A DNA stretch of 64,000 nucleotides from Planctomycetota bacterium (GTDB lineage Bacteria; Planctomycetota; Planctomycetia; Pirellulales; Pirellulaceae): the NCBI GenBank assembly GCA_046343015.1, contig JBKDOL010000030.1:87619-151618 (forward strand). The letters run 5' to 3'. Shown in pieces: positions 1,511 through 60,799 of this stretch. The notes beneath the pieces are model-generated. The model searched no databases and was not told the DNA's origin. It was given only the letters and a program-made list of their open reading frames with translations. A program made the position numbers and the translations under genes. The first letter of the stretch is position 1. The number at the start of each line of letters is the position of its first letter.

Positions 1511-1540
1511 TCACCGAGCATCGCCTCACCGAGCATCGCC
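1511..1540. repeat. tandem direct repeat, 2 x 15 bp (tcaccgagcatcgcc), perfect
   Basis: Read directly: 1511-1525 is identical to 1526-1540. Intergenic. Confidence 0.95.
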
Positions 1541-1580
1541 GTCCGACGCGCTGACTCGCCTTCTACAGCGCTTGGTTCAG

Positions 1581-1619
1581 ATGCCTGCTCGCCAAGCAAT
1601 GCCTGCTCGCCAAGCAATG
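1581..1619. repeat. tandem direct repeat, 2 x 18 bp (atgcctgctcgccaagca) plus the first 3 nt of a third unit
   Basis: Read directly: 1581-1598 is identical to 1599-1616, followed by atg. Confidence 0.95.
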
Positions 1620-1909
1620 GTTGTCGCCAAGCAAGCGTCACGGCTGGCCAACGAGAATTAAGATCAGAGGGCATTGAATGCCGCTTCTGCATGCAGATAG
1701 ACGCATACTCCTGTTTGCGTCCTTTTGTTAGATGCCATTTGCCCCTGGCGAAATAAATCTTAGGAGAGGCGCACCCTGCCGGTCAACTCGCATTCCGCAA
1801 AATTCTCCGCCTCCGCAGCCAAATAATGAGTTCTTCCCTTACCGCCATGGGGATTCTGACTCTTCTTCCCTGCCGTCGAACAAACCGGTTTGAATCCGCC
1901 GGCACCCAA

Positions 1910-2869: not shown

Positions 2870-3369
2870 TTGCAGACTCCCCCAGTGCGACCGCCAGTCC
2901 CTGCCTTGATATGCGGTATTGGAGCCACGTCCGTTTGGCCTGCGGTCTGTATCGACGGATGGCAAGCTGGGAAAAACGGGAAATGATTTTCGTCTGGTGA
3001 AAAGCAATGAGTTGCCGACGAATGTGCCAAGTCTGCCAAATCTGCCGACCATCGACGGGTTTGAGAGGGGGGGCGGCATTTGGAAAGCGGTTGTCCAGCC
3101 GAGGCTGATTTGGGAAAATCGTGCGTCTTCCGAGCAGCGTGACGTTGGGAGTTTTCCCGGACAGCGCGACATGCATTCCGGAACCTCTGCCTAATTGCAG
3201 GCGAGGCGTCGGGGGGAGCCGACTTGGGCCTACCCCTGGCGGCTCCCCGGCAGTTGTCCGAACTGACATTTTTCGGGTTGCGTAGTGCAAGCGGTCGGTT
3301 CGCTTCCAACCGATGGATTATTGTTTTCCGTTCGTCTATCTCGGTGAGCAAATTCCGAGGGCTCAAAAC

Positions 3370-4638
3370 ATGAAGAACACTGTTTGGCTTTGCACGTTTT
3401 CAGCGTTTTTGGGGGCTGTAATCGCCATCGGTTTATGGCAGCATTTCCTCGCCCCCTCCGTCTCGGCCTCAGCCAATTTCCTCTCTTCCGCTAAGCCGAT
3501 CGCTGCGGTGGAGCCGATCACTTCGGTGGACTTGGGACCGTCGTTCCCGATGCCTCCGGAAGCAGTGGCGAACCAGATGCCGCCTCAGGACTTGGTCCAA
3601 CCGCAAGTCCCAGCAGCTCCGTTGACGCCGGTAGTCCCGGTCGGGGCCAATCCCGAGTACACGCCCGAGGAAGCGGTCAACATTGCCGTTTACGAAAAGG
3701 TCAATCGCAGCGTCGTCAACATCGATACCCAAGCGGTCAAGGTCGACAACTTTTTCATGCTGGCCGTGCCGACTGAGGGAGCTGGCTCTGGATGGGTCCT
3801 CGATCGGGACGGTCATATCGTCACCAACAATCACGTGATCGCCGAGAGCGATTCGATTCAGGTCACGCTTGCCGATGGTTCTGCCTTTCCCGCGCGGCTG
3901 GTCGGCACTGATCCGGCTACCGATATTGCCGTCCTCAAAATCGATGCCCCACCCGAATTGCTCTTTCCGGTTGAATTTGGAGAGTCAGCCAATCTCCGGG
4001 TCGGCCAGCGTGTATTCGCTATCGGCAACCCTTACGGCTTGGAGCGGACCATGACCGTCGGGATTGTCTCCAGCCTGAATCGAACCCTCGCGTCGGGCAA
4101 CAACCAGAAGCTGAAAAACATGATCCAGCTTGATGCCGCCCTGAATCAGGGTAACTCTGGAGGGCCATTGCTCGACAGTCGCGGCCGATTGATTGGCATG
4201 AACACCGCCATCGCCTCGATGACCGGGCAAAACTCCGGAGTCGGGTTTGCCGTCCCGGCGAATGTCATTCGGCGCACGGTTCCGGAACTGTTGCAATTTG
4301 GCAAGGTGGTCCGGGCTTCGCTTGGCATAGAAGCGATCATGGAAATGCGCCGCGGGGTCATGATCGCCAAGACCGAGAAAAACGGGGCCGCCGAGCAGGC
4401 CGGTCTCCGCGGCGGCTATCGCGAAGCCGTGGAGCGTTTCGGAACAATGCAAGTCCGACGACAGTTTTTTGACCGACAAAACGCGGACGTGATTTTGAAG
4501 ATCGACGACAAAGAGGTGAAGTCAGCCGATGACATCAACGACATTGTCGGCGAACGTAAACCGGGGGAGGAGGTCGTAGTGACCATTCTCCGAGCAGGTC
4601 GCGAGGCAGTCTTGCGGGTTCGCTTGGGCAGCGAGTAA
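3370..4638 (+). CDS. htrA: HtrA/DegP-family (S1C) serine protease with C-terminal PDZ-like domain
   Basis: Catalytic triad contexts GHIVTNNHVI (His), TDIAVLKI (Asp) and GNSGGPLLD (Ser). Start moved to ATG 3370, giving the membrane anchor MKNTVWLCTFSAFLGAVIAIGLW. Confidence 0.9.
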   Translation: MKNTVWLCTFSAFLGAVIAIGLWQHFLAPSVSASANFLSSAKPIAAVEPITSVDLGPSFPMPPEAVANQMPPQDLVQPQVPAAPLTPVVPVGANPEYTPEEAVNIAVYEKVNRSVVNIDTQAVKVDNFFMLAVPTEGAGSGWVLDRDGHIVTNNHVIAESDSIQVTLADGSAFPARLVGTDPATDIAVLKIDAPPELLFPVEFGESANLRVGQRVFAIGNPYGLERTMTVGIVSSLNRTLASGNNQKLKNMIQLDAALNQGNSGGPLLDSRGRLIGMNTAIASMTGQNSGVGFAVPANVIRRTVPELLQFGKVVRASLGIEAIMEMRRGVMIAKTEKNGAAEQAGLRGGYREAVERFGTMQVRRQFFDRQNADVILKIDDKEVKSADDINDIVGERKPGEEVVVTILRAGREAVLRVRLGSE

Positions 4639-5562: not shown

Positions 5563-6621
5563 ATGGGCGCATTGCCAAAAACAATGCCGGCTTTGCGAAA
5601 ACTGAAGCGGGAACCCGGGCTTGATTTTGTCCCCGCGGTGGAACTCCCCGAATTGGGGCCGCGAGAAGTCCTGGTGCGGACGACGCATGCCGGGATCTGC
5701 GGAACGGACCGACACATTTTTGAATGGGACAAGTGGAGCCAGCAGCGGGTCAAAATCGGGATCACGACGGGGCACGAGTTTTGCGGAATTGTTGAAAAGA
5801 CCGGCTCCGCAGTGACGCGAATCGCCACCGGCGCCCGAGTCAGCGCCGAAGGTCACATTACCTGCGGAACATGTGAACAGTGCCGGACAGGCAATGGCCA
5901 CATTTGCAATGAAGTTCGAATTCTCGGAATCGACACCAACGGCTGCTTCGCCTCTTACCTGGTCGTTCCCGAAGAAAACATCTGGCCGGTACACCCGAAA
6001 ATCAGCGACCAGATTGCGGCCGTCTTCGACCCGCTGGGCAACGCGGTGCACACCGTCATGACGGCTGGCGTCAGCGGCAAGTCAGTGCTGATCACGGGAG
6101 TCGGAATTATTGGCTTGATGGCGGTGACTGTCGCCAAGGCAGCCGGCGCGGGCAGCATCTTTGTCACTGATGTCGACCCCAACCGACTGCGACTCGCCCG
6201 GGAACTCGGCGCGAATGAAGCTTTTGACGGGCGCCAACCCTGGGTCGAAGAGGTTCGCCGCCACTGCGGCGGCAGCGGACCGCAGGTGCTGCTCGAAATG
6301 AGCGGCAATCCGCGGGCGATTCACGACGGCTTCACCGCCCTCCGCAATGGCGGTACCGCTGCCCTGCTCGGTATCCCGTCCGATCAAATCCAGTTTGACT
6401 GGACCAACCACCTGATTTTCAAAGGCGCCACCGTGTTCGGCATCAACGGCCGCCGGATGTTCGAAACGTGGTATCAGATGGAAAATCTGCTCTTGTCCGG
6501 GAAACTGCAACTCGACCCGATCATCACTCATGAAATCGAGATGTCCGACTTCGCTTCCGGTTTTCGAATGATGCAGACCGGAGAGGCGATCAAAGTCGTC
6601 ATGCGAATACCCAAAGCCTGA
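5563..6621 (+). CDS. tdh: L-threonine 3-dehydrogenase (Zn-dependent MDR family)
   Basis: ICGTDRHIFEWDKWSQ, GHEFCGIV and ITGVGIIGLMA (GxGxxG). N-terminal region is collinear with E. coli Tdh as I remember it. GGGAG SD before ATG 5563; kbl follows, as in the classical tdh-kbl pair. Confidence 0.92.
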   Translation: MGALPKTMPALRKLKREPGLDFVPAVELPELGPREVLVRTTHAGICGTDRHIFEWDKWSQQRVKIGITTGHEFCGIVEKTGSAVTRIATGARVSAEGHITCGTCEQCRTGNGHICNEVRILGIDTNGCFASYLVVPEENIWPVHPKISDQIAAVFDPLGNAVHTVMTAGVSGKSVLITGVGIIGLMAVTVAKAAGAGSIFVTDVDPNRLRLARELGANEAFDGRQPWVEEVRRHCGGSGPQVLLEMSGNPRAIHDGFTALRNGGTAALLGIPSDQIQFDWTNHLIFKGATVFGINGRRMFETWYQMENLLLSGKLQLDPIITHEIEMSDFASGFRMMQTGEAIKVVMRIPKA

Positions 6622-7882: not shown

Positions 7883-7895
7883 GCACCCATCAACC

Positions 7896-10150: not shown

Positions 10151-11302
10151 GTGAACGAATCATTGGATCGCGTTGAGCAAACCACGACCGGAGAGAAACT
10201 GCAGCCAACGGAGACGGCTGATTCCGAGTTTACCGAGTCTCATTGTGGCGAATTGGTCGCCCGTTACGAGAAACAGTCGCATGAACCGCGACTGAGCTGG
10301 ACGACCCATTTGCGCCTGCTGCGAAAATTGGGGGAAGGCGGTCAGGGGATCGTCTACCTGGCCGAACGTCCCGGTGCCGACAGTTTCACGCTGCCGGTGG
10401 CTTTGAAGTTCTTTTCGCCAGAACGTTACAAGCGGCCGGAAGATTACGACCTCGACATGGTCCGGATTGGCAACGTCGCTGCAATGGTTGCCCGAATCCA
10501 GCACGACAATCTGCTGCTGGTGCAGAATTATCTCGACCGCGAGCGGATCCGCGTGATGATCATGGAATGGGTGGAAGGGTTTGACCTGCGCCGGCTGTTG
10601 ACCCCCAGGATGTTCACAGTGATGCAGGAGCGATTCAGCCAAAAACGTTGGCAGCACCTCAATCAAGTGCTGGTGACGGCGGGCCCGGAGCAGCCTCGCT
10701 TCAAGCCCGGTGTGGCCGTCGCCATCGTCCGCAACTGCCTGAACGCGCTCGGGGCCCTGCATCGCCACGGGATCGTGCACGCCGATATCAAGCCGGCAAA
10801 CATCATGCTCAAAACTTCCGGGCAAGCCAAAATCATTGATATTGGCTCCGCGTTCCAGTTGAGCGACCCGCCCAAGCGTCGCTCGATTACTCCCGCCTAT
10901 GCTGCCGTCGAAGTCCTTCAGGGGGAGCAGACCACGCCGCTCTCGGACCTCGCCAGCCTTGGTTACGTCCTCGTGGAGTTGCTCTCAGGTCAAACCCTGT
11001 TTTCAACCGAACAGGATGCCGGCAAATTGCTTTATGCCAAGCGCGAAATCTTCCGCTTGCTGCCTGAACTTTTGCCGGAAGAAGTTGTCCGCAACGAACT
11101 CCTGATGTCGTTCATTCAGGGCCTCGTCGCCCCCAATCCGGTGGACCGATTCCAATCAGCCGAGTCGGCCGTGGTCGTCGAAGACGGCGCGGCAGCGTTC
11201 CAACGCCAACTGATCAAGGGTGACTTGGCCAGTGAGTATGAAAACGACATCCGCGTCTGGATCGAAGAATTGCTGGAAATGGAAACCAAAGGCGTCCTTT
11301 AA
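10151..11302 (+). CDS. Hanks-type serine/threonine protein kinase
   Basis: LGEGGQGIVYLA (Gly loop), VALKFF (Lys), HRHGIVHADIKPANIML (catalytic loop with HAD instead of HRD), IIDIGSAF (DIG instead of DFG). GTG start. Confidence 0.9.
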   Translation: MNESLDRVEQTTTGEKLQPTETADSEFTESHCGELVARYEKQSHEPRLSWTTHLRLLRKLGEGGQGIVYLAERPGADSFTLPVALKFFSPERYKRPEDYDLDMVRIGNVAAMVARIQHDNLLLVQNYLDRERIRVMIMEWVEGFDLRRLLTPRMFTVMQERFSQKRWQHLNQVLVTAGPEQPRFKPGVAVAIVRNCLNALGALHRHGIVHADIKPANIMLKTSGQAKIIDIGSAFQLSDPPKRRSITPAYAAVEVLQGEQTTPLSDLASLGYVLVELLSGQTLFSTEQDAGKLLYAKREIFRLLPELLPEEVVRNELLMSFIQGLVAPNPVDRFQSAESAVVVEDGAAAFQRQLIKGDLASEYENDIRVWIEELLEMETKGVL

Positions 11303-11412
11303 AGGGCCCGGCTGCCAACTCACGACCTCTGCGGAATCCGTCGCGGTGTCGACCGCCAAAGCCCCGCCCGCCGCCAAACAGGCCAAAGAAAAGTCCTGTC
11401 TTAGCTGCACTT

Positions 11413-11446
11413 GTTGAACAAGCAGAAGCGTCGAACAAGCAGAGGC
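11413..11446. repeat. tandem direct repeat, 2 x 17 bp (gttgaacaagcagaagc / gtcgaacaagcagaggc)
   Basis: Read directly, 15/17 identical. Lies between the convergent kinase and 78-aa ORF. Confidence 0.9.
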
Positions 11447-11490
11447 ATGAAAACGCCGCGTACCAGCCAAGCAGCGACTCCGGCCCAGTA

Positions 11491-11535
11491 CTCGTTTAAG
11501 CAGTGCTCGTTTAAGCAGTGCTCGTTTAAGCCCAG
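11491..11535. repeat. tandem direct repeat, 3 x 15 bp (ctcgtttaagcagtg); the third unit contains the stop codon of the 78-aa CDS
   Basis: Units at 11491-11505 and 11506-11520 are identical; 11521-11535 is ctcgtttaagcccag. The TAA of the minus-strand CDS is at 11528-11526. Confidence 0.95.
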
Positions 11536-11762
11536 TCCAACCCGGTCGCCTTGCGGACGCGCTCTTCGAAATTGCCGAGTAAACCGCCAATCACGTCCCA
11601 CTTGAGCGGCTTGCGGACTTCGATATCGCCTTGCTGGTTAATCCGCACAATGGAAGCCCCGCGCACGCCGGCCGAGCCGAGGTCCGGAGAGTGGAGTTCA
11701 CCATCATTGACGATCTCCGCGAGCTTTGAGCCGGTCATTTCGATAAATTTCATCTGCCCCAT
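11526..11762 (-). CDS. hypothetical small protein (78 aa)
   Basis: Compact ORF with balanced composition (MGQMKFIEMTGSKLAEIVNDGELHSPDLG...RKPLKWDVIGGLLGNFEERVRKATGLDWA). No family recognised. Alternative ATG at 11753. Confidence 0.55.
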   Translation of the reverse strand: MGQMKFIEMTGSKLAEIVNDGELHSPDLGSAGVRGASIVRINQQGDIEVRKPLKWDVIGGLLGNFEERVRKATGLDWA

Positions 11763-12015: not shown

Positions 12016-13089
12016 GTGTGCAGGGACTTTCGTGCTTGGGACAGAACATCGCCGGTTTCATTCCGAATCGCCCTCTCCTCTTTGCTGATTCCCGCCGTGA
12101 ACCAACCGCCCGTCGCTGAAATTCTCGAAGTCTCTCCGGCCGGCGAGCAAATGCGCGTGGATGCCTACTTGGCCCTTCGCTTTCCGGAAATCAGCCGCTC
12201 CCGCTTGCAGGCTGCCATTCGCAGGCAGCAAGTCAAGATTGACGGCGTCATCGCGAAGCCCTCGACGAGGCTCTCGGCGGGACAACGGCTTGATGTCGTG
12301 CTGCCCGAGCCGGAACCGGCCTGCTCTCGTCCGGAAGAGATTCCGCTGGACATTCTGTTCGAAGATGATTGGCTCGTGGCGATCAACAAGCCTCCCGGCA
12401 TGGTGGTCCACCCTGCAAAGGGGCATTGGTCCGGGACGCTGACTGCCGCCCTGGTCCATCATTTTTCCCAGCTCAGCCAGGCGGGTGGGGCGAATCGCCC
12501 AGGAATTGTCCATCGCCTCGACCGCGATACCAGCGGCGTGATCCTGATCGCCAAGCACGACTTGGCACACGTCAAGCTGACCGAGCAGTTCGAGGCGCGG
12601 ACAGTGAAGAAGCAGTACCTGGCGATTGTGACTCCGGCTCCGGATCGCGACCGCGACTTGATCGACAAGCCGATCGGCGTCCACCCCTATCAACGGGAAA
12701 AAATGGCGATTCGCGAGCACCACCCGACCAGCAAGCCAGCCACGACGCAATATGAAGTGGTCTGCCGCTATCGCGGCTTGGCACTCGTCAAGGCATTTCC
12801 CAAAACGGGGCGGACTCACCAAATCCGCTTACACCTGGCCCACATCGGTTGCCCCATTCTGGCTGACAAGCTTTATGGGGGCCGCTCCCGATTCCTGTTG
12901 GGTGAGTTGACCGGCAAAGCCGATGACACCACGGAACTCCTCGCCCGACAAGCCTTGCACGCCGAGCGAATCGAATTCGCCCATCCGGGGACGGGCGAAC
13001 CGATGGCGATCTCGGCCCCTATCCCGCGCGACTTGGAGTTGACGATTGAGATGCTGGCAAGATACCGCCCGGCCGGTGGCAAGCATTAA
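12016..13089 (+). CDS. RluA/RluD-family 23S rRNA pseudouridine synthase
   Basis: S4-like N-terminal segment (RVDAYLALRFPEISRSRLQAAIRRQQVKIDG), catalytic HRLDRDTSGVILIAK and KTGRTHQIRLHLAHIG. Start uncertain: GTG 12016 or in-frame GTG 12097. Confidence 0.88.
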   Translation: MCRDFRAWDRTSPVSFRIALSSLLIPAVNQPPVAEILEVSPAGEQMRVDAYLALRFPEISRSRLQAAIRRQQVKIDGVIAKPSTRLSAGQRLDVVLPEPEPACSRPEEIPLDILFEDDWLVAINKPPGMVVHPAKGHWSGTLTAALVHHFSQLSQAGGANRPGIVHRLDRDTSGVILIAKHDLAHVKLTEQFEARTVKKQYLAIVTPAPDRDRDLIDKPIGVHPYQREKMAIREHHPTSKPATTQYEVVCRYRGLALVKAFPKTGRTHQIRLHLAHIGCPILADKLYGGRSRFLLGELTGKADDTTELLARQALHAERIEFAHPGTGEPMAISAPIPRDLELTIEMLARYRPAGGKH

Positions 13090-13120
13090 CGGCTGTTGCT
13101 CGGTTGGCGACGGTGAACCC

Positions 13121-13162
13121 GCTGGCCAGAATCGTGATCGGGCTGGCCAGAATCGTGAAACC
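13121..13162. repeat. tandem direct repeat, 2 x 21 bp (gctggccagaatcgtgatcgg / ...gaaacc)
   Basis: Read directly; starts 32 bp downstream of the rluD-like stop. Confidence 0.9.
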
Positions 13163-13195
13163 GCGGGCAAGCATCTTCGCCAACCGCCCGCTGCT

Positions 13196-13258
13196 CGCGT
13201 GGGAGGCCCCGCTCCGCGCGTGGGAGGCCCCGCGGCTCGCTTGGGAGACTACGCGCTG
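13196..13258. repeat. tandem direct repeat, 3 x 21 bp (cgcgtgggaggccccgc...), third unit degenerate
   Basis: Read directly: cgcgtgggaggcccc recurs at 13196 and 13217, and cgcttgggagact occurs at 13238. Confidence 0.85.
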
Positions 13259-13399
13259 GGACGAACAAGCACATGGACGATGTAAGGTTGACGAGCGGCG
13301 ACGGCTGCGGGTGGAGGTCCCCGCAGCTGTCCTGCATCCCTTTCCGTCCACTTTCGGGTAACCGCCGACCCTTGCCTGTTCTTTGGGAGTCGTTTGGCT

Positions 13400-13443
13400 C
13401 CCGCACGCAGCCCGCACGCAGCCCGCACACCGCCCGCACGCGA
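13400..13443. repeat. tandem direct repeat, 4 x 11 bp (cccgcacgcag)
   Basis: Units cccgcacgcag, cccgcacgcag, cccgcacaccg, cccgcacgcga. Ends 26 bp from the stop of the convergent 13469..14041 CDS. Confidence 0.9.
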
Positions 13444-13468
13444 TTCGCCCCGGCACTCACTGAAGGCG

Positions 13469-14041
13469 TTACTGCACGACCCGGACGGATTCGATCATCT
13501 GGTTAAACGCCGCGACGTTCTTTTCCATGGTCGCTGCGGGGCCGTAGCACTTGACGTAATAGTTGCCTTCCGGCGTCTCGATAATTGCTGCGAGCATCCG
13601 GTAGTTTTCCTTTTTGGACTTGGGCCCAGCCGGATTTCCCATCGTATCGAGATAGGTCCCCTGCAAGTCAACCAGATGGACTTTCACCTTGTTGAATTCC
13701 TTGACGACAGGCTCGGCCGGCTCCTTGCCGAGTTCAAATTGGCCGTACCAACGCTCGATATTTTGTTCGATGGAACCACCCGAAGCCATCATGGTCACGC
13801 GGCCATTGGCCTCATCCGCTTCCAACTTGGGGATGGCAAATTCAGCTTCAATCATGGTGATCTTCGGCTGGACCTTCTTCCAGCTTCCAGGGGCCTTGAG
13901 CAACAATCCCCCCTCAGCCAAGACCACATCCTGGGTCGCGGCCGCCTGCTCCTTGGCCTCCTCTTGAGCCAGGCCCGCAGCGGGCAGGCAAACAACAGGC
14001 AGGCAAACAGACAACAGCACCAACCAGATGAAACGACTCAT
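13469..14041 (-). CDS. secreted hypothetical protein (190 aa)
   Basis: Signal peptide MSRFIWLVLLSVCLPVVCLPAAGLAQE, then a globular-looking region (KITMIEAEFAIPKLEADEANGRVTMMASGGSIEQNIERWYGQF...). No family recognised. Confidence 0.7.
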   Translation of the reverse strand: MSRFIWLVLLSVCLPVVCLPAAGLAQEEAKEQAAATQDVVLAEGGLLLKAPGSWKKVQPKITMIEAEFAIPKLEADEANGRVTMMASGGSIEQNIERWYGQFELGKEPAEPVVKEFNKVKVHLVDLQGTYLDTMGNPAGPKSKKENYRMLAAIIETPEGNYYVKCYGPAATMEKNVAAFNQMIESVRVVQ

Positions 14042-20736: not shown

Positions 20737-20793
20737 GACCACCCGGCTCATCGAAACGGGCACGGGTTCGATGCAGGCTTGCAACGGCCGCTA

Positions 20794-20835
20794 GGCACTT
20801 GGGGAAAGGCACTTGGGGAAAGGCACTTGCGGAAA
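20794..20835. repeat. tandem direct repeat, 3 x 14 bp (ggcacttggggaaa)
   Basis: Two perfect units plus ggcacttgcggaaa; starts 58 bp downstream of the aceF stop. Confidence 0.92.
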
Positions 20836-21051
20836 GCAACCGTTGCCTCTGCCGGTTCTCCCCTGCATCTGCAGGTCCGTTGACCGCAGCGGCTTGGGGG
20901 CTTCGGATTTGTGATGCTCAAGTCCCCGTCGGAACGAACTGCTGGAGCCCCCGTTAGCACGACCTACTGGGTGCTAACGAGTAGGCCTGATTTTGCCGAT
21001 ACGCTCCTTCTCCGCCAAACGTTCACATGGTTCGGTACCGAGAGGATACCG

Positions 21052-21079
21052 CGCGGAGTCTGCCCCGCGGAGTCTACCC
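21052..21079. repeat. tandem direct repeat, 2 x 14 bp (cgcggagtctgccc / cgcggagtctaccc)
   Basis: Read directly. Confidence 0.85.
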
Positions 21080-21090
21080 GGCGAGGAGCC

Positions 21091-21120
21091 GGCTCCACCT
21101 GCCGCGGCTCCACCTGGGGC
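21091..21120. repeat. tandem direct repeat, 2 x 15 bp (ggctccacctgccgc / ggctccacctggggc)
   Basis: Read directly. Confidence 0.85.
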
Positions 21121-21214
21121 CTTGCGCCCCGTAGGTATTCCAAGACTCGGAGGGCGGCGCGAGATCGCAGGCAGCGCGAGATAAGTTCTTTGCCGCTTGG
21201 TTGAGTTGCGGCAG

Positions 21215-24131: not shown

Positions 24132-24170
24132 TGACTCGCGGGATTGACTCGCGGGATTGACTCGCTTGGA
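24132..24170. repeat. tandem direct repeat, 3 x 13 bp (tgactcgcgggat)
   Basis: Two perfect units plus tgactcgcttgga. Lies in the divergent region between the ECF sigma gene and the AAA+ gene. Confidence 0.9.
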
Positions 24171-27433: not shown

Positions 27434-27463
27434 AGTCCCCAACCGGGAAGTCCCCAACCGCAA
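27434..27463. repeat. tandem direct repeat, 2 x 15 bp (agtccccaaccggga / agtccccaaccgcaa)
   Basis: Read directly; inside the gene-free stretch upstream of groES. Confidence 0.85.
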
Positions 27464-30481: not shown

Positions 30482-30573
30482 ATCGATGAGCTCACCGAGG
30501 GACGCCTGACCCGCCTGAGAGGCATTCAGGCGTCAACCGGGTCCAACAGGACCGCTCATCACAAAAGCCTCAA

Positions 30574-30641
30574 GGGCCAATTGGCATTCGGGGCCAATTG
30601 TCATTCAGGGCGAAGTAACATTCAGGGCGAAGTTCGGGCAA
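30574..30641. repeat. mosaic tandem repeat, 4 x 17 bp (gggccaattggcattcg, gggccaattgtcattca, gggcgaagtaacattca, gggcgaagttcgggcaa)
   Basis: Read directly. Lies between the groEL stop and its terminator, and the last unit forms the left arm of the terminator stem. Confidence 0.85.
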
Positions 30642-45688: not shown

Positions 45689-45949
45689 CTAAATTCCAAA
45701 CTCGCTTCGCCATGACGAATCGTAAGGCCGGGAAAATACCAGCTGAACTTGCTCGGCGCGCGTGCCCGACTCCGGAGGCTCTGGGCTTAAGCATTCCAAC
45801 GCAGCATTTAATTGATGCCGGCGTCGATCGCCCGGCTCAGCGGAGGGACTTCGCTCAAGCCGATCCAAAATCGCCGCCAACTGCAATATCCGCGACCTGG
45901 CCTCCAGAAATTCCCGGTCAAGAACCCGGTAACTGGTTGTCTCACTCAT
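45689..45949 (-). CDS. hypothetical small protein (86 aa), first gene of the TatD/kinase/regulator operon
   Basis: MSETTSYRVLDREFLEARSRILQLAAILDRLERS... ATG 45949 has an AGGAG 9 nt upstream and is preferred over the GTG at 45970. Confidence 0.55.
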   Translation of the reverse strand: MSETTSYRVLDREFLEARSRILQLAAILDRLERSPSAEPGDRRRHQLNAALECLSPEPPESGTRAEQVQLVFSRPYDSSWRSEFGI

Positions 45950-46200
45950 GACTGTCCACTCCTGACGCACGATTTACTAGTCTCGACGAAATTCTATCCC
46001 GTTGCCCCGAGATTCCGCCTGTCGCCCTTCGCGATCAATTTCAGATCCAGCCTCACCCTTCCGACCCACCCTGTCCGCGGGGACAAAACAATTGCCGGAG
46101 AAGTTGTGGCGGCGCAAACCTGTGGTTGTCACCGCAAGGCGATTGCTTGCCCAACAGCATCACTCCACTATTTTAATGCGCGGAAGCTCGCGGTCATACG

Positions 46201-46310
46201 CCATGAGCCCAACTCCCATGAGCCCAACTCCCAGGTGCCCAACTACCAAGGGGCCCAACTACCAGGTGCCCAACTCCCAGGTGCCCAACTCCCAGGTGCC
46301 CAACTCCCAA
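46201..46310. repeat. tandem array, 7 units of 15-16 bp (ccatgagcccaactc x2, ccaggtgcccaacta, ccaaggggcccaacta, ccaggtgcccaactc x3)
   Basis: Read directly. Lies in the 700-bp divergent intergenic region between 45949 (-) and 46651 (+). Confidence 0.93.
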
Positions 46311-46650
46311 GCGCATCGCGCCCCGAAGCAAAAGTGCGCGTTCCGAATTCCTGTCCCCACTGCCGCTGAATGCCACTCGGATGCTTCCCACCCCTGGAAC
46401 CCGCAGTCACCAGCGCTGCACCTGAGGGCAGTCAGCTTTCCGATTCGGTAAAACCGTTCTTTTTGGACGCCTGTTGCCCCGCTTCCCCGCGATCAACCAC
46501 TCTTCCGGTCCAGAGCCATCCACCCAGCGAACCGAATGGGCTACAATTGGTAGATTCCCACCTCCCGCCCACTCCTGTCGCGGAACGAACGGCACGATTC
46601 GTTTCCTCGCTTTCTGAGTGGGCACCGCATCTTTCAGCATTTGACAGTTA

Positions 46651-49162: not shown

Positions 49163-49198
49163 TCGAAAATGCTGGTCTGGTCGAAAATGCTGGTCTGG
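49163..49198. repeat. tandem direct repeat, 2 x 18 bp (tcgaaaatgctggtctgg), perfect
   Basis: Read directly; 65 bp upstream of rimI. Confidence 0.95.
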
Positions 49199-49844: not shown

Positions 49845-51074
49845 CTAACCTTTCAAGTTTGCCCGCAATCCCCCCGCACGCGCGATCAGGGAACGTTCGA
49901 CAGCGGCTTCCGAAAATCCTGTTGCCAACAGGGTCACGACTGGTTCGCCGCGGGCGATCACGTTGCCCATGGGTGGAATATCGGCGAGCCGTCCGGCCGC
50001 TCGCTCTCTTCGCAGCCACTCGCTCTGAGTCCGGTCGATCATCAGCGGCCGATCTTCCGGCCAAAACAAAACTGCTTTGCCGAATACAGTTGCGTTGCTC
50101 GAGCCGCTCGCTTCACAAGTTGCAGAGCTTCCGATCGACCCGGAGCAGAAAGGAGAAGTGGCGGCGCGCGCGACAGGCCAACCTGCCCCCTCTGCGAACT
50201 CGGTCGCTTGCAGTCCAACCAAACTGCCGCGCGGTGTTGCCATTTCCCACAACTCCCCGCTGGCCGTGATCCGCGGATTGATTTCGATCGGGCAAAGTTC
50301 ATCGCCGATCGCCATCAGATCGATACCGATGACGCCACGGCCACCGAGTTCCACCAGCCCTCGGCCAATCGTCTCCAACTGGTCGGCCTGACTGGCTGAA
50401 ATCGGCAAGGGGCCGATGGCTCCACAGTACTGATAATCCTTTGCCCCGAACTCGCGGCGACCGCAGAGCTGCCGAAAAAAGCCCAAGCAGCTTGCCTGTC
50501 CCCTGGTCAGGAAAAATAGCGCACTGGAGGCCAACCCGCGTTTCAGCTCCTGGAGAAATTCCGAACCGGCAGCGTTCCCCTCCTGAGCAATCCAATCGGC
50601 TACTGCTTTTGAATCGAGTAGCCGGACGCCCTGACCGCCAGAGCTGTCAGCGCGTTTCAGGAGCCATTGCTTTGCCGGATCCTGAGGTGGCGGTTCCTTC
50701 GATCGCTCGCCTCGACCGGCGGAACGATGCTGTGGCACGCGAATCCCCGCAGCGGCAAAAACAGCAGTCCATCGCTCGGGATCGCGCAGGGCGGCACAGG
50801 ACTCGGCGGAAAGATTCCACAACGGCGCCCGCTCGCGCAATGCGGCGACGAGGTTGGGCTGCGTTTCAAATCCCCCGCCAATCAGGATCGCGTCAGGGCG
50901 CAAGCCTTCGGCCGCTTCAGGAATCTCCGCCCAGCCTCCAACGCGGACGACTTCACCGGCTTCGGTCGCGTCGACATCGGCAAAAAAGTCGATCCCTGCC
51001 GACTGCATTCCCGTCCGCTGCGCACTTTGCAGGAGCCATCTCACAGACGGCCCCACGACGACCAATCGATTCAA
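49845..51074 (-). CDS. ATP-grasp superfamily protein (of the kind linked to H4MPT/C1 gene clusters)
   Basis: LLKRADSSGGQGVRLL, GVIGIDLM and IEINPRITAS are ATP-grasp-like. TTG start. Divergent from fae. Confidence 0.72.
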   Translation of the reverse strand: MNRLVVVGPSVRWLLQSAQRTGMQSAGIDFFADVDATEAGEVVRVGGWAEIPEAAEGLRPDAILIGGGFETQPNLVAALRERAPLWNLSAESCAALRDPERWTAVFAAAGIRVPQHRSAGRGERSKEPPPQDPAKQWLLKRADSSGGQGVRLLDSKAVADWIAQEGNAAGSEFLQELKRGLASSALFFLTRGQASCLGFFRQLCGRREFGAKDYQYCGAIGPLPISASQADQLETIGRGLVELGGRGVIGIDLMAIGDELCPIEINPRITASGELWEMATPRGSLVGLQATEFAEGAGWPVARAATSPFCSGSIGSSATCEASGSSNATVFGKAVLFWPEDRPLMIDRTQSEWLRRERAAGRLADIPPMGNVIARGEPVVTLLATGFSEAAVERSLIARAGGLRANLKG

Positions 51075-51110
51075 GCCTATCTCCCATCTGGTTGGCAGCC
51101 CGCCCTTGGT

Positions 51111-51125
51111 CTGCTAATTTAGCAG
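51111..51125. promoter_or_regulatory. palindrome CTGCTA-att-TAGCAG in the ATP-grasp/fae divergent region
   Basis: Perfect 6+6 inverted repeat, 47 bp upstream of the fae ATG. Confidence 0.3.
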
Positions 51126-51171
51126 CCTCACTCAACCGTTGTTTTCACCATTATTGAATCAGGAGATTTCC

Positions 51172-51669
51172 ATGTCGATGTTCATCGGCGAAGCCCTCGC
51201 GGGAGACGGAAACGAAATCGCTCATATCGACTTGCTAATCGGGAGCAAGTCCGGGCCCGTCGGCACGGCTTTTGCCAACGCCTTGGCCACCCAAAGCGAA
51301 GGACACACCAACCTGCTGGCCGTTTTGACCCCCAATCTCGCTGTCAAGCCAGCTACCGTGATGATCACCAAGGTCACCATCAAGGGGATGAAGCAGGCGG
51401 TTCAGATGTTCGGCCCGGCTCAGGCAGCCGTTGCCAAAGCGGTCGCCGACAGTGTCTCCGACGGGGTCATCCCGAAGAACCAGACCGAAGACCTCGTCAT
51501 CGTCTGCGGTGTGTTCATTCACCCCGCCGCCAGCGATGACAAGAAGATCTATCAGTACAATTACGACGCCACCAAGGCCGCCATCGTCAATGCGATGGGC
51601 AACAAGCCTTCCGTTGATGAAATGATCGCCGGCAAGGAAAAGGCAGTCCATCCGTTCCGCGGTTTCTAA
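51172..51669 (+). CDS. fae: formaldehyde-activating enzyme (5,6,7,8-tetrahydromethanopterin hydro-lyase)
   Basis: IGEALAGDGNEIAHIDLLIG, VQMFGPAQ, CGVFIH, YNYDATK and HPF are collinear with Methylobacterium Fae as I remember it. AGGAG SD before ATG 51172. Confidence 0.93.
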   Translation: MSMFIGEALAGDGNEIAHIDLLIGSKSGPVGTAFANALATQSEGHTNLLAVLTPNLAVKPATVMITKVTIKGMKQAVQMFGPAQAAVAKAVADSVSDGVIPKNQTEDLVIVCGVFIHPAASDDKKIYQYNYDATKAAIVNAMGNKPSVDEMIAGKEKAVHPFRGF

Positions 51670-51948
51670 GCATCCGCCGCCTCTGGCTTGGAGTTCCGAA
51701 GTCCGCTCGAGTTGGGCGATTCTTCTCGCATGAATTCTTCAGCCTGGAGCTGAAATGGAAAAACTTGGCTGGTTGTGGCCCCACGGTCGCAGCCAGCCTT
51801 TTTCATTCCCCACGCGGGGCTTCGGTTCTTCGGGAATCGGATCTCCCCGAGCGGAGCGGCCAGGCCCCCTCGCTGCACTTTTCGAACGGCCCGATCGCAA
51901 CCCCTTCCCCGTCATTCCTTCACACCTCCAGAGTGATTGCGCAAGCCC

Positions 51949-52824
51949 ATGAGCAAGCCTAAAGTATTGCTGCAACTGGATGTTGACCCGCAGGCCAGTT
52001 CCTTCGATGCCTTTGTCGCGATTGACGCTGGTGTCGAACATCTTCTGCAGTATCCCAACGTCAATCGGGAAAATGTCATTTCGCTTGTCCACGGAGCCAT
52101 CTTTACCCGGGGACCTGCCGACCTCAAAAACACCGCTCTGTTTTTCGGTGGCTCTGAAGCGAGCGCCGCAGAAAGCCTCTACCACATTGCCCGCCAGAGC
52201 TTCTTCGGGCCCTTGCGCGTCTCGGTGATGTGCGACCCGAACGGAGCGAATACAACCGCCGCCGCTGCGGTCCTCTCGATCGAGAAGCACCTGCCCCTGG
52301 CCGGAGTGAACCTCTGCGTGCTCGGTGGAACCGGACCGGTCGGTTCGCGCGTGGCCCGTATCGCCGCCAGCCAGGGGGCCGTGGTCCGCATCTGCTCGCG
52401 GTCGCTCGAGCGGGCCCGATCGACCGCCGAGGCGATTCTTGCGGCTTACCCCCAAGCCCGCGTCGAGTCCTTCGAATTCCTCGCGGAGGCCGATGTCGCC
52501 CGAGCCGCCGCTGGCTTCGATGTCCTTGTCGCCGCTGGTGCTGCCGGAGCCACCTTCACTCTCCCCGACTGGCTGGACCACGTCCCAGGCATCAAAGTTG
52601 CCATCGATTTGAATGCGGTCCCACCGGTCGGGTTGCTCGGGATCGAACCTCGCGATGAGGGCGCGATCCGCTCGGGTCTGATCTGCTATGGCGCCCTCGG
52701 TGTTGGCGGCCTGAAGATGAAAATCCACAAGGCTTGCCTCAAGCAGCTGTTCGAATCCAATGAACGCTGCTTTAACACTGCCGAAATCTTTGAGTTCGGC
52801 CGGTATCTCGTCAACAACGCCTGA
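51949..52824 (+). CDS. NAD(P)-dependent methylene-tetrahydromethanopterin dehydrogenase (MtdA/MtdB/MtdC family)
   Basis: FFGPLRVSVMCDPNGANTTAAAAV, VLGGTGPVGSRVA, YGALGVGGLKMKIHKACLKQLFES are collinear with M. extorquens MtdA as I remember it. ATG 51949. Confidence 0.9.
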   Translation: MSKPKVLLQLDVDPQASSFDAFVAIDAGVEHLLQYPNVNRENVISLVHGAIFTRGPADLKNTALFFGGSEASAAESLYHIARQSFFGPLRVSVMCDPNGANTTAAAAVLSIEKHLPLAGVNLCVLGGTGPVGSRVARIAASQGAVVRICSRSLERARSTAEAILAAYPQARVESFEFLAEADVARAAAGFDVLVAAGAAGATFTLPDWLDHVPGIKVAIDLNAVPPVGLLGIEPRDEGAIRSGLICYGALGVGGLKMKIHKACLKQLFESNERCFNTAEIFEFGRYLVNNA

Positions 52825-57307: not shown

Positions 57308-57352
57308 AGTCAAACCAACCTGAGTCAGGCCAACCCGAGTCAAGCCAACCTG
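57308..57352. repeat. tandem direct repeat, 3 x 15 bp (agtcaaaccaacctg / agtcaggccaacccg / agtcaagccaacctg)
   Basis: Read directly; upstream of the HAD hydrolase gene. Confidence 0.88.
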
Positions 57353-57453: not shown

Positions 57454-57491
57454 AAAAAAAAGCGGTCGTTTCAATTTCTGAAACGACCGCT
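57454..57491 (-). terminator. intrinsic terminator of hppA
   Basis: Perfect 13-bp stem (agcggtcgtttca 57461-57473 / tgaaacgaccgct 57479-57491) with a 5-nt loop. On the minus strand it is followed by eight T (57461-57454). Confidence 0.85.
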
Positions 57492-57518
57492 TCCAATTTT
57501 AGCAAGTTCCGTCTCCCC

Positions 57519-57584
57519 CGCAGCGAGCATCGCTTCACAACGCAGCGAGCATCGCTTCACAACGCGGCGAGCATCGCTTGGCGG
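57519..57584. repeat. tandem direct repeat, 3 x 22 bp (cgcagcgagcatcgcttcacaa), third unit diverged
   Basis: 57519-57540 is identical to 57541-57562; 57563-57584 is cgcggcgagcatcgcttggcgg. Lies between the hppA stop (57604) and its terminator. Confidence 0.93.
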
Positions 57585-57603
57585 CGGGAAGACCAGACGC
57601 GAA

Positions 57604-60153
57604 TTACTTGCGACCCCGACCGCCGATCCGCATTCCGTAGAACGAGCGCCAGATAAAGAAATTCGCAATCAGGAACAAGACGCCGGCAATCACCGCGTTC
57701 AGCGAGACACCATACTTCTCGGCAAACTCCCCAGCAAACGACTGCTTGCCCATGCTGACCGCAAGTTCGACGGCCAACAGACCGAACAACGTGGTGAATT
57801 TGATCACCGGGTTCAATGCAACCGAAGAGGTATCCTTGAACGGGTCGCCGACGGTATCACCCACCACAGTCGCGGCGTGAAGGTCCGTTCCCTTTTGTTT
57901 CAACTCAACTTCGACAACCTTCTTGGCATTATCCCAGGCGCCACCGGCATTCGCCATGAAAATCGCTTGGTACAACCCGAAAATCGCAATCGAAATCAGG
58001 TAGCCGATAAAGAAATAAGGGTCGACGAAAGCAAACGCCAGCGAGACGAAAAACACGCTGAGGAAGATATTAAACATGCCCGCTTGAGCATACTTCGTGC
58101 AGATCTCCACGACCTTCTTACTGTCTTCCACCGAGGCCTTGGTGACCCCTTCCAGCTTGATGTTACCCTTGATGAACTCGACCGCCCGATAGGCACCCGT
58201 GGTCACCGCTTGGATCGAAGCACCGGTAAACCAGTAAATAATCGCACCGCCGGAAACCAAACCGAGCATGAACGGAGCGTTGAGTAAAGACAAACTTTGT
58301 ATCGCCGCCTGGTTGGTCAATTGCTCGGTGAGGTTCATGATGATCGCGAAGATCATCGTCGTCGCACCCACCACGGCCGTGCCAATCAAAACTGGCTTCG
58401 CGGTCGCCTTGAAAGTGTTGCCGGCACCATCATTTTCTTCGAGGAAGTGCTTCGCCTTCTCGAACTCGACATCGAATCCGAATTCGCGGCGGACTTCTTC
58501 CTTGATGTTCGGGACGCTTTCAATCAGCGACAACTCGTAAACCGACTGGGCGTTGTCCGTCACCGGACCGTACGAGTCGACGGCAATCGTCACTGGTCCC
58601 ATGCCCAGAAAACCGAACGCCACCAGACCGAATGCAAACACCGGCGGTGCGAGCATCACCGGGTCCAAACCCTGCCCCGGCATCGAGAAGTAGTAAGCGA
58701 GTGCCATCAAACCGACAATGCTCATCCCCAGCCAGTAGCAGGAGAAATTACCAGCCACCAGACCGGAAAGAATGTTCAGCGACGCGCCACCCTCCTTCGA
58801 AGAGGAAACGACCTCCTCGACGTGGGCAGATTCGGTCGAAGTGAAGATTTTGACCAGCTCAGGAATAATCGCACCCGCCAACGTGCCGCACGAGATAATC
58901 GACGACAGCTTCCACCAAAGCGTCTCATTGCCGGCGAGCGGACCGCCGCTCGCCATCGGGCCAATCGTCACGTAGGAGACCACGTAGGTCAGGGCAATCG
59001 AAACAATCGAAGTAATCCAGACCAAACGGGTCAAAGGACCTTCAAAGTTCATTTTGTCAGCGTTTTCACTGCTTGCCTTGGTCATCGCCTCGTTGATGAA
59101 GTAGCTCGCTGCCGAAGCAACCACCATCATCACCCGCATCACGAAAATCCAAACCAGCAATTGAATCTGCAGTGTTTGGTAACCTTCGCCGGCCACCGCC
59201 TGATTGATCGCGAGCAGGATGAAGGTAATCAGGGCGACTCCGGTCACGCCGTAAGTCTCAAAACCGTCCGCACTCGGCCCCACCGAGTCGCCGGCGTTAT
59301 CTCCGGTGCAGTCCGCAATCACACCCGGGTTTCGGGCGTCGTCTTCCTTGATCTTGAAGACGATCTTCATCAAGTCCGAACCGATATCGGCAATCTTGGT
59401 GAAAATACCACCGGCGATTCTCAACGCCGCCGCACCCAAACTCTCACCAATCGCAAATCCGATAAAGCATGGGCCCGCGTAGCTGCCGGGGACAAACAGC
59501 AGAATGCAGAGCATGATCAGCAACTCGACGCTAATCAACATCATCCCGATGCTCATACCGGCCTTCAGCGGAATGGCGTAGCAGGGATAGGGCTTGCCTC
59601 GCAAACTGGCAAACGCGGTCCGAGAGTTGGCGAAGGTGTTAACCCGAATACCGAACCAGGCAACCAGGTAGCTGCCGGCGATCCCGATCAGGGAGAAAAT
59701 CAAAATCACGATCACCAGATTTAGAGGGAATCCGCTGGTTTCAGCATGCGTCACCGGGTCTTTGTACGTGGCCAACTTGCCGAAATACACGGCCACAACT
59801 GTTGCGATAAACAACCACAGGATCAAGATAAACTTCCCCTGCGTCACCAGGTATGTCTTGCAGGTTTCGTAAATCAGGTCAGAGATTTCAAGCATCGAGC
59901 GATGCACCGGCAACGCCTTCAGCTGGCTGTAAATCCACAATCCAAAGCCGAGCCCCAGAATGCTGACCACCACCCCAATCAGGAGCAGGGTGTAACCCGT
60001 CATTCCAAAAGCAATCACCTGCTTGCTCAAATCGGGAATGATCAGGTCCGCTTCACCCGCAAAGACCCCTCCGGGAAGGGCTAAAACCCCAACTATCGCC
60101 AACAGCAGGGAAGACAGCGAACGCCAAGAAACAGCAAATGGTTTTCCGCACAT
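57604..60153 (-). CDS. hppA: membrane-bound proton-translocating pyrophosphatase (K+-independent signature)
   Basis: IADCTGDNAGDSVGPSADGFETY, GGAWDNAKK and VGDTVGDPFKDTSS. The diagnostic GNTFKATAK has Lys at the A/K position, as in K+-independent enzymes. ATG 60153 is preferred over the TTG at 60201. Confidence 0.92.
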   Translation of the reverse strand: MCGKPFAVSWRSLSSLLLAIVGVLALPGGVFAGEADLIIPDLSKQVIAFGMTGYTLLLIGVVVSILGLGFGLWIYSQLKALPVHRSMLEISDLIYETCKTYLVTQGKFILILWLFIATVVAVYFGKLATYKDPVTHAETSGFPLNLVIVILIFSLIGIAGSYLVAWFGIRVNTFANSRTAFASLRGKPYPCYAIPLKAGMSIGMMLISVELLIMLCILLFVPGSYAGPCFIGFAIGESLGAAALRIAGGIFTKIADIGSDLMKIVFKIKEDDARNPGVIADCTGDNAGDSVGPSADGFETYGVTGVALITFILLAINQAVAGEGYQTLQIQLLVWIFVMRVMMVVASAASYFINEAMTKASSENADKMNFEGPLTRLVWITSIVSIALTYVVSYVTIGPMASGGPLAGNETLWWKLSSIISCGTLAGAIIPELVKIFTSTESAHVEEVVSSSKEGGASLNILSGLVAGNFSCYWLGMSIVGLMALAYYFSMPGQGLDPVMLAPPVFAFGLVAFGFLGMGPVTIAVDSYGPVTDNAQSVYELSLIESVPNIKEEVRREFGFDVEFEKAKHFLEENDGAGNTFKATAKPVLIGTAVVGATTMIFAIIMNLTEQLTNQAAIQSLSLLNAPFMLGLVSGGAIIYWFTGASIQAVTTGAYRAVEFIKGNIKLEGVTKASVEDSKKVVEICTKYAQAGMFNIFLSVFFVSLAFAFVDPYFFIGYLISIAIFGLYQAIFMANAGGAWDNAKKVVEVELKQKGTDLHAATVVGDTVGDPFKDTSSVALNPVIKFTTLFGLLAVELAVSMGKQSFAGEFAEKYGVSLNAVIAGVLFLIANFFIWRSFYGMRIGGRGRK

Positions 60154-60769
60154 AGGATTCAATCGATTGTTCTCAAAACTTACCGGTGAACAGCAAGACA
60201 ACAGTGTCCAGATTGCTTCGAAGTCCGCAAGGTCTCTAATGGTAAACTAACGCCCGTTATTGCGGCAATTCCAGCGACATTACGCCATACATCCATCACG
60301 ACCTGCTCGGTCGTGCTCTGGCACCCACGCTTGGCTGCGGCCCATTCCGACGCCCGGCAACTCACCCCCAGCCTCGCCCGCAACCAACGATTTGCACGTT
60401 TTTCAGGGGAAAGTGGCAATATTACCTTACTGGGCCGGCTATCACTCGACGTGGTCATGACGCTCCCAAACGTTCGGTGCCAACCCGCATCTCACCACCC
60501 CAAACGCAGACCGAAACCAAACGATGCGCCAAAAAGACGCATCATTTGGCTGGCCTTAGTGCACTCGGGCCCGACTCGTCCCGCCGCTCCCGTTCGTGGC
60601 GCTGGCTGGCTAGGTCTTGGCTTTCCTTTTAAAGCTCCCCAATCCACCGCGGTCAACAGGTCTAAACCCTCAATTTTTTTGACTTGTGAGGACAGCGATT
60701 CGAAGGGAGTCGGCGGTCGGGATGGGGATGGCGGTGAATTGTCTATCGCGGTGCCCGCCGAGCGAAAGT

Positions 60770-60799
60770 CTGTTCCGTTTTTGCCTGTTCCGTTTTTGC
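60770..60799. repeat. tandem direct repeat, 2 x 15 bp (ctgttccgtttttgc), perfect
   Basis: Read directly; in the hppA/queA divergent region. Confidence 0.95.

Follow-up and report, generated by a model that had tools for sequence, protein, structure and literature searches.

Introduction

The variable-number tandem repeats (VNTRs, or minisatellites) used for bacterial typing by multiple-locus VNTR analysis (MLVA), such as those of Burkholderia pseudomallei/mallei, Yersinia pestis, Xanthomonas, and the ETR/QUB loci of Mycobacterium tuberculosis, have units of roughly 10-25 bp, and slipped-strand mispairing is the accepted mechanism by which they change. Slippage also drives the simple-sequence contingency loci of Neisseria, Haemophilus, and Campylobacter, which are phase-variable repeats of 1-8 bp and lie sometimes in promoters. 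The mycobacterial interspersed repetitive units (MIRUs) and the short tandemly repeated repetitive (STRR) heptamers of cyanobacteria are dispersed intergenic families of related sequence. Tandem duplications of about 5-100 bp of unique sequence are known from yeast rad27/FEN1 mutants, Escherichia coli polA 5'-nuclease mutants, and plant paired-nick repair. Here we describe the short tandem arrays in a 64-kb stretch of DNA (hereafter the window, to which all positions refer) from the chromosome of a Pirellulaceae (Planctomycetota) bacterium, an uncultured freshwater planctomycete. We propose, with a probability of about three in four, that these arrays are locus-specific minisatellites arising from unusually frequent short tandem duplication with later slippage, a mutational by-product filtered by selection.

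Results

Tandem Repeats Finder (TRF) detected 21 arrays in the window at our main threshold (score of at least 50), as compared to 0-2 (mean about 0.3) in each of 30 dinucleotide-preserving shuffles of the window; at the looser threshold (score of at least 30) there were 45 rows versus 5-24 per shuffle (mean about 13). The repeat density is thus distinguishable from that of the shuffled controls with which an earlier note on this DNA had proposed to compare it. The arrays consist of 2-7 head-to-tail copies of an 11-22 bp unit, abutting without a spacer, and cover about 1.4% of the window. Their match percentages range from 76 to 100%; the statement that most copies are perfect, made previously, suits the five arrays at 100% and is too strong for the set as a whole.

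Exact tandem duplications were also counted by period, independently of TRF. Fourteen loci have a period of 11-22 bp (the longest being 22 bp) versus about 0.1 expected, and the excess is confined to this range. No excess was found for exact duplications of 7, 8, 9, and 10 bp (5, 1, 0, and 0 observed versus 4.4, 1.0, 0.3, and 0.07 expected). The period is 15 bp in 7 of the 14 exact duplications with a period of at least 11 bp, in agreement with the mode reported before, and as this mode is seen in a count that is free of TRF, it is not an artefact of the TRF score threshold.

The held-out 9.56 kb past the right end of the window, available from same-species contigs, is array-rich too (four arrays scoring at least 50; 0.42 per kb), which implies that the trait extends outside the window. 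Exact duplications of at least 11 bp amount to 219 per Mb in the window, about 50 at the sister-species loci, 42 in Pirellulales (640 kb of aceE neighbourhoods, where the duplication spectrum has a hump at 13-15 bp), 17 in other Planctomycetota, and 7 in non-planctomycetes; there are none in the 50 kb around E. coli aceEF. Among cultured relatives, Roseiconus nitratireducens is repeat-rich too, with 6 arrays in 22 kb. In terms of TRF arrays the window density is about 330 per Mb, while a survey of prokaryotic satellites, the criteria of which were stricter than ours so that the densities are not directly comparable, gives at most about 23 per Mb in any bacterium and 4.06 per Mb in Rhodopirellula baltica (PMC6749651). 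Our literature search found no paper reporting such a repeat density in Planctomycetes.

The catalogued loci are the following (a strand is given where one is assigned; CDS, coding sequence; copy-number differences are relative to the window).

1511-1540: perfect 15-bp unit, 2.0 copies; intergenic, downstream of the 1910-2869 gene (minus strand)
1581-1634: 18-bp unit, 3.1 copies; intergenic; a 17-bp insertion (about one 18-bp unit) in L111 and L112
3494-3530, plus strand: 18-bp unit, 2.1 copies, in frame; N-terminal part of the CDS of an HtrA-like protease
11413-11446: 17-bp unit, 2 copies, 15/17 identity; intergenic, 3' of a Ser/Thr kinase gene
11486-11531: 15-bp unit, 3.1 copies; intergenic
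13113-13175: 21-bp unit, 3.0 copies, 76% matches; convergent spacer between a pseudouridine synthase gene and a 190-aa gene
13187-13247: 21-bp unit, 2.9 copies; same convergent spacer
13400-13441: 11-bp unit, 3.8 copies; same spacer; L084 and L085 lack two units (22 bp)
13983-14016, minus strand: 12-bp exact match at a 15-bp lag, weak; N-terminal region of the 190-aa CDS
19607-19652, plus strand: 15-bp unit, 3.1 copies, in frame; Ala/Pro linker of the pyruvate dehydrogenase (PDH) E2 (APKPP repeat)
19704-19744, plus strand: 15-bp unit, 2.7 copies, in frame; E2 linker (VVAPA); protein P0001 is shorter by one unit (463 vs 468 aa)
20793-20836: 14-bp unit, 3.1 copies; convergent spacer after E2; one more unit in L083, four more in L086
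21047-21083: 14-bp unit, 2.6 copies; convergent spacer after E2
21091-21116: 11-bp exact match at a 15-bp lag, 1.7 copies, weak
22441-22471, minus strand: perfect 15-bp unit, 2.1 copies, in frame; 677-aa hypothetical CDS
24132-24165: perfect 13-bp unit, 2.6 copies; divergent spacer between an extracytoplasmic function (ECF) sigma gene and a 473-aa gene; one unit fewer in L084
25887-25909: 11-bp unit, 2.1 copies, score 39; overlaps the stop codon of the 473-aa gene
27434-27461: 15-bp unit, 1.9 copies, 11-13 bp exact match at a 15-bp lag, weak; spacer upstream of groES
28084-28115: two degenerate 16-bp units; about 230-260 bp upstream of groES; three more units (+48 bp) in nine other contigs
30573-30628, plus strand: 17-bp unit, 3.3 copies; between the groEL stop codon and an intrinsic terminator (T-run at 30654)
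41112-41151: 20-bp unit, 2.0 copies; three or four more units in L097, L090, and L098; runs of N interrupt SPAdes scaffolds at this site
46201-46311: 15/16-bp unit, about 7 copies (no array is larger); divergent spacer; about 20 contigs show at least 9 length alleles
49163-49198: perfect 18-bp unit, 2.0 copies, without flanking microhomology; divergent spacer
49846-49869, minus strand: TTTGCCCGCAAT, single-copy in the window; C-terminal tail of an ATP-grasp gene; tandem-duplicated (+12 bp, in frame) in L107
55024-55055: 13-bp unit, 2.5 copies; spacer between amidase and glutamate dehydrogenase genes
57308-57352: 15-bp unit, 3.0 copies; upstream of a haloacid dehalogenase-like (HAD) hydrolase gene; L108 and L109 lack one unit
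57519-57579, minus strand: 22-bp unit, 2.8 copies; between the stop codon of a membrane pyrophosphatase gene (57604) and its terminator (about 57461-57500)
60770-60799: perfect 15-bp unit, 2.0 copies, without microhomology; divergent spacer between the pyrophosphatase and queA genes

All 24 loci that the earlier note had listed exist and are visible in the sequence. Nineteen are, to within a few bases, TRF arrays scoring at least 50, and the one listed at 25891 scores 39; those at 11413, 13983, 21091, and 27434, however, have fewer than two full or perfect copies. The list was also incomplete, having missed the arrays at 3494 (18 bp, 2.1 copies, HtrA-like CDS) and 41112 (20 bp, 2.0 copies) and the degenerate 16-bp pair at 28084.

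The window is 78% coding according to a codon-usage gene map, which matches the public gene calls on same-species contigs. Its 14 kb of intergenic DNA hold 17 of the 21 arrays (1.21 per kb, 5.8% of intergenic bases), versus four (0.08 per kb) in 50 kb of coding DNA. The coding arrays have periods of 18, 15, 15, and 15 bp, all multiples of three, and occupy tolerant segments, namely the Ala/Pro linker of E2, the N-terminal part of HtrA, and the hypothetical 677-aa protein; periods that are not multiples of three (11, 13, 14, 17, 20, and 22 bp) are present in the intergenic arrays. The HtrA-like protease itself (3313-4638; L196 and L197) has two called lengths, 441 and 422 aa, depending on the strain, and either start-codon choice or variation near the in-frame 18-bp repeat at 3494 may be the reason.

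It could be argued that the arrays which we regard as intergenic lie in unannotated genes or decaying pseudogenes, their 15-, 18-, and 21-bp periods encoding peptide repeats. This reading is very unlikely. The period is a multiple of three in 9 of the 17 intergenic TRF arrays, but it is not in the other eight, and neither 9/17 nor the 10/22 of a wider count differs significantly from the expected one third (binomial p about 0.16 by our estimate). Long open reading frames (ORFs) do run over arrays at 1278-1661, 11156-11590, 13019-13456, 45812-46369, and 60313-60903, and an 85-aa ORF is called across part of the 46201 region in two strains; the overlapping ORFs, however, carry no coding signal in the codon-usage scan, they are uncalled in public annotations, their host spacers are absent from the sister species, and spurious long ORFs are common at 59% G+C.

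Arrays are found in convergent spacers (three in 13090-13468, three in 20737-21214, plus 25887), in divergent spacers (24132, 27434/28084, 46201, 49163, and 60770), and in tandem spacers (1511/1581, 11413/11486, 30573, 41112, 55024, and 57308/57519), hence no single transcriptional role accounts for all of them. The groEL (30573) and pyrophosphatase (57519) arrays, two of about 22 intergenic ones, follow a stop codon and precede a strong intrinsic terminator, and are therefore probably transcribed. With these two of about 22 in our own scan, association with terminators was rejected as a general feature. At 30573-30660, the final 17-bp units grade into the 5' arm of the hairpin of the groEL terminator (GGGCGAAG...CTTCGCCC TTTTTT), as though part of the stem had been copied in the duplication. 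Adjoining the 11486 array, between the genes for the kinase and the pseudouridine synthase, every strain has a called small ORF (11526-11753, minus strand; 75-78 aa), as does each of the three sister species (75-113 aa); it may be a real conserved small gene.

The three sister species were obtained by an E2 protein search (81-88% identity) and their contigs keep the gene order of the window. In the shared block, the window has 0.51 arrays per kb and the sister species 0.05-0.26, in other places and with unrelated units. No array unit or position of the window is conserved in the three syntenic sister species, which implies arrays of young and lineage-specific origin rather than conserved regulatory elements. 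The spacer between the pseudouridine synthase and 190-aa genes measures 379 bp in the window versus 284, 71, and 53 bp in the sister species, and that between the E2 and 677-aa genes 478 bp versus about 347, 237, and 13 bp; the latter spacers give no alignment between the window and the sister species. As the convergent spacers are too diverged to align, the ancestral states of the repeats are not inferable from these species. In the divergent spacer between the ECF sigma and 473-aa genes several blocks are conserved across the four species, and the 24132 array lies in a non-conserved stretch between them. Judged by these comparisons, the DNA carrying the arrays is dispensable.

Repeat polymorphism is not confined to the species of the window, as sister species A has a perfect 14-bp array of 6.6 copies in L185 (906-997) that is not reported in L184, the E2 protein being identical. 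In sister species B (L188, 14655-18552), groES and groEL are inverted as a pair and directly follow a 523-aa gene; two hypothetical genes that lie between them in the window arrangement are absent, which points to a local rearrangement. A metagenome scan with E2 for closer relatives gave best matches of about 60-73% amino-acid identity.

Selection for iterated sites in untranslated regions (UTRs) and promoters, one of two explanations offered in the earlier note, would make the arrays binding sites of transcription factors or RNA-binding proteins, with copy number tuning expression. We consider this unlikely. Arrays are indeed situated in the divergent promoter spacers 24132, 46201, 49163, and 60770, and those at 30573 and 57519 lie between stop codon and terminator; seven arrays, however, are in convergent 3'/3' spacers, which measure 13-71 bp in sister species and are thus nearly absent there, and the 24132 array is outside the conserved promoter blocks. 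The 30573 unit includes a 10-bp palindrome (GCCAATTGGC), 46201 is hyper-allelic, and CGAGCA is common to five units, but the units are otherwise unrelated between loci, neither unit nor position is kept in the sister species, and the commonest period, 15 bp, is out of helical phase. Furthermore, copy number drifts, differing even between strains that are 99.8-99.9% identical.

For the study of this variation, 34 same-species contigs were collected by exact-protein look-ups from NCBI metagenome-assembled genomes (MAGs) and from ENA, JGI, and Logan assemblies, representing various samples and assemblers. They are 98.9-100% identical to the window, and the arrays are reproduced in all. Compared to the window, they show about 28 distinct indel alleles, of which about 20 (about 70%) are copy-number changes at arrays, nearly all by whole units; 10 loci vary in copy number. 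The length alleles are +17 bp at 1581, -22 bp (2 x 11) at 13400, +14 and +56 bp at 20793, -13 bp at 24132, +48 bp (3 x 16; nine contigs) at 28084, +60 and +80 bp at 41112, -15 bp at 57308, and +12 bp, in frame, at 49857. At 46201 there are at least nine alleles, three of which (-25, -84, and +14 bp) do not correspond to whole units, perhaps because of the alignment. The in-frame array of E2 varies as well: in a protein cluster 99% identical to E2, the 19704 array is shorter by exactly one VVAPA unit. The other indels comprise six 1-bp events (three within arrays), one 3-bp event, and one 28-bp deletion. The last is in L114 (a JGI contig), where it removes window positions 5714-5741 of a zinc alcohol-dehydrogenase-like gene with a frameshift; the allele is pseudogenised or else due to an assembly error.

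In a 21-kb block compared among six sequences, 4 of about 15 arrays vary in length versus 67 segregating sites in 21,310 columns, which makes the variability per array about 85 times that per nucleotide (a rough figure, ignoring phylogeny). Longer arrays have more alleles, and units are gained and lost whole, an outcome of the slippage type. The comparison of close strains suggested previously thus brought to light whole-unit polymorphism, which presumably arises by slipped-strand mispairing in replication.

Assembly or consensus artefacts had to be considered because the source is apparently uncultured and known from MAGs, and because runs of N interrupt SPAdes scaffolds exactly at four arrays (28091, 41096-41136, 46219, and 57335) and inside the 57519 array; some allele differences are also of sizes that an assembler could produce. 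That the repeats themselves are artefacts is nevertheless extremely improbable: the same arrays and units recur in independent MEGAHIT, SPAdes, JGI, and Logan assemblies of many different samples, most arrays (30-60 bp) are well under read and k-mer length, and the in-gene arrays keep frame. The presence of the repeats in 34 independent assemblies, together with changes mostly by whole units, indicates genuine VNTRs and settles, at the level of assemblies, the concern about artefacts raised earlier. The scaffolds with N runs at arrays are L091, L092, L095, L103, L109, L193, and L194, the gaps of L193 and L194 being inside 57519-57579; gene calling fails across such gaps, and the pyrophosphatase gene is uncalled in L194.

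No dispersed repeat family was found in the window and the units are unique to each locus, which bears out the former description of the units as unrelated. The CCAAC core attributed to three of them proved unremarkable in a k-mer enrichment test. In the same test the hexamer CGAGCA/TGCTCG, present in 5 of 26 units (1511, 1581, 11486, 13187, and 57519), had a family-wise p of about 0.04. A core shared by the 1511 and 57519 units had likewise been claimed; removal of 7 bp from the 22-bp unit at 57519 yields the 15-bp unit at 1511 (14 of 15 positions identical besides the 7-bp gap), and the local alignment score of 29 exceeds the null 99th percentile of 26, but the similarity is marginal and weak. 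A shared motif as the cause of the arrays was rejected, CGAGCA being the only enriched motif, with borderline significance, and no motif being convincing. Hairpin-promoted slippage was also rejected as a general cause: when doubled units were folded as DNA and compared to random intergenic segments, hairpin potential was marginal (summed P = 0.048), and individually notable only at 30573.

The clean two-copy loci at 1511, 49163, 60770, and 22441 have 0-1 bp of flanking microhomology, which is about the chance level, and so does the sole difference between one and two copies among strains (TTTGCCCGCAAT at 49857, duplicated in L107). A microhomology-mediated origin, one of the processes named previously, is thus unsupported for the primary duplications. 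Other arrays terminate in partial copies of 7-11 bp, which could be microhomology or decayed units. The narrow size spectrum combined with 0-1 bp of microhomology at two-copy loci suggests microhomology-free duplication with a preferred length, and we infer that the founding duplications, from one copy to two, arose by such a process. Clean duplications without microhomology (1511, 49163, and 60770) also resemble target-site duplications, and the arrays might be footprints of mobile DNA, either target-site duplications left after excision or decayed elements of the miniature inverted-repeat transposable element (MITE) or repetitive extragenic palindromic (REP) type. The window, however, holds no dispersed family, no terminal inverted repeats, and no transposase, the unit lengths span 11-22 bp without a fixed length, and in many arrays the units number 3-7 and are gained or lost singly, which makes a mobile-DNA origin highly improbable.

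The genes of the window are ordinary chromosomal genes by NCBIfam and Pfam matches, among them those of HtrA, AceE/E2, GroES/EL, a PAS histidine kinase, the membrane pyrophosphatase, UvrC, QueA, and the tetrahydromethanopterin (H4MPT) pathway. The closest AceE relatives in a scan of GTDB one-per-species genomes are from Pirellulaceae MAGs, with at most 77% amino-acid identity. The G+C content is 0.56-0.62, and the GC skew is negative in 15 of 16 4-kb bins. Covariance models at gathering score detected no Rfam family in the window, and a tRNA search no tRNA. A lone gene for a TraG/VirD4-like type IV coupling protein (37680-41300; Pfam T4SS-DNA_transf, TrwB_AAD_bind) has no further type IV secretion system genes close by and is preceded by a 1.34-kb stretch without a called gene and with several weak terminator-like sites. 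An H4MPT-linked C1-transfer cluster (49845-52824; ATP-grasp_3, Fae, Mpt_N/methylene-H4MPT dehydrogenase-like) contains a strong bidirectional terminator at 51763-51799.

Discussion

Rather than regulatory devices, the arrays seem to be neutral by-products of errors in DNA copying, lodged in spacer DNA that is dispensable. They are a known kind of feature, VNTRs that arise by duplication and slippage and are tolerated in spacers, at an unusual density and with a distinctive period spectrum; no new kind of genetic element is revealed. Whole-unit polymorphism, the stepwise fall in density across lineages, the occurrence in every type of spacer, and coding periods that are exclusively in frame all speak for an active lineage-specific mutational process, the other explanation that the earlier note had offered.

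We propose that (i) an elevated rate of short tandem duplication, of 11-22 bp with a mode of 15 bp, would seed the arrays; (ii) replication slippage would then add or delete whole units; and (iii) arrays would survive where selection does not purge them, in dispensable spacers of any orientation and in 3' UTR segments between stop codon and terminator. In genes, only in-frame arrays would be kept, in the Ala/Pro linker of E2, in N- or C-terminal tails, and in hypothetical proteins. Arrays formed in this manner would feed the growth and fast turnover of intergenic spacers in the species of the window. Candidate mechanisms for the founding step, by analogy, would be mis-ligation of unprocessed lagging-strand flaps or the fill-in and joining of staggered nicks or breaks. 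A more far-reaching version, that the Pirellulaceae lineage of the window has a size-constrained, microhomology-independent process which duplicates 11-22 bp (mode 15) of unique sequence far above the level of other bacteria, continually seeds minisatellites, and is a main driver of the growth and turnover of its long spacers, is tentative, and we would sooner bet against it than for it.

Several points weigh against the origin by duplication and slippage that we prefer. The slippage mechanism is deduced from outcomes. The lower size bound (no excess at 8-10 bp) comes from few loci, with p of about 0.04 by our estimate. Some length alleles may be short-read assembly collapses, with arrays nearing k = 141 and SPAdes breaking at arrays. 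The sharing of CGAGCA and the similarity between the 1511 and 57519 units hint at a sequence preference, which is unexpected for a purely random process. The arrays at 30573 and 57519 flank terminators of highly expressed genes, and there may be an RNA-level effect at some loci. Lastly, nothing in the proposed process explains the several-fold excess over the sister species.

This excess, together with the size-constrained and apparently microhomology-independent signature, is the point of most interest. If the signature is true, something unusual in replication or repair would be indicated, for example in the processing of lagging-strand flaps, in the fill-in of staggered nicks, or in an end-joining polymerase. 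Should the density hold genome-wide, a genome of 6-8 Mb would carry on the order of 2,000 arrays and be among the most tandem-repeat-rich bacterial genomes described, offering a natural experiment on the origin of short tandem duplications in bacteria and on the shaping of intergenic DNA. The loci 46201, 41112, 20793, and 28084 could serve as VNTR markers for tracking strains of this uncultured, widespread freshwater planctomycete in metagenomes. There is also a practical warning, as short-read assemblers break or collapse at the arrays and spurious ORFs are called over them.

Among the known systems, the duplications of the rad27 type, which are typically flanked by short direct repeats, differ from the clean two-copy loci described here, where the flanking microhomology is 0-1 bp. 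Methanosarcina genomes have up to 89 satellites per Mb, with short units (10-30 nt) ascribed to local DNA duplication errors (PMC6749651); those satellites are archaeal, with A+T-rich units, and many belong to sequence families or derive from microsatellites, whereas the units of the window are unique to their loci. The window arrays are distinct from simple-sequence contingency loci in that their units are of 11-22 bp, the coding arrays are in frame, and there is no excess at 7-10 bp; they are without association to surface or virulence genes, and many are in convergent spacers. Iterons and arrays of transcription factor sites are set apart by the lack of conservation in the three syntenic sister species and by the seven arrays in convergent spacers. 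As the earlier note had held, the repeats are not of the REP or MITE type, and the same is true of bacterial interspersed mosaic elements (BIMEs), since there is no dispersed or inverted-repeat family and the hairpin potential is marginal (P = 0.048); nor are they CRISPR, in which repeats of 24-48 bp alternate with unique spacers of comparable length, since the copies abut directly. The intergenic concentration is like that of the MIRUs and STRR heptamers, which differ in forming dispersed families. The arrays share with bacterial VNTRs and minisatellites the unspaced direct repeats, the whole-unit variation within one species, the locus-specific units, and a location that is mainly intergenic and in frame when inside genes; compared to the VNTRs used for MLVA they are denser, consist mostly of 2-3 copies, and have a narrow period spectrum peaking at 15 bp.

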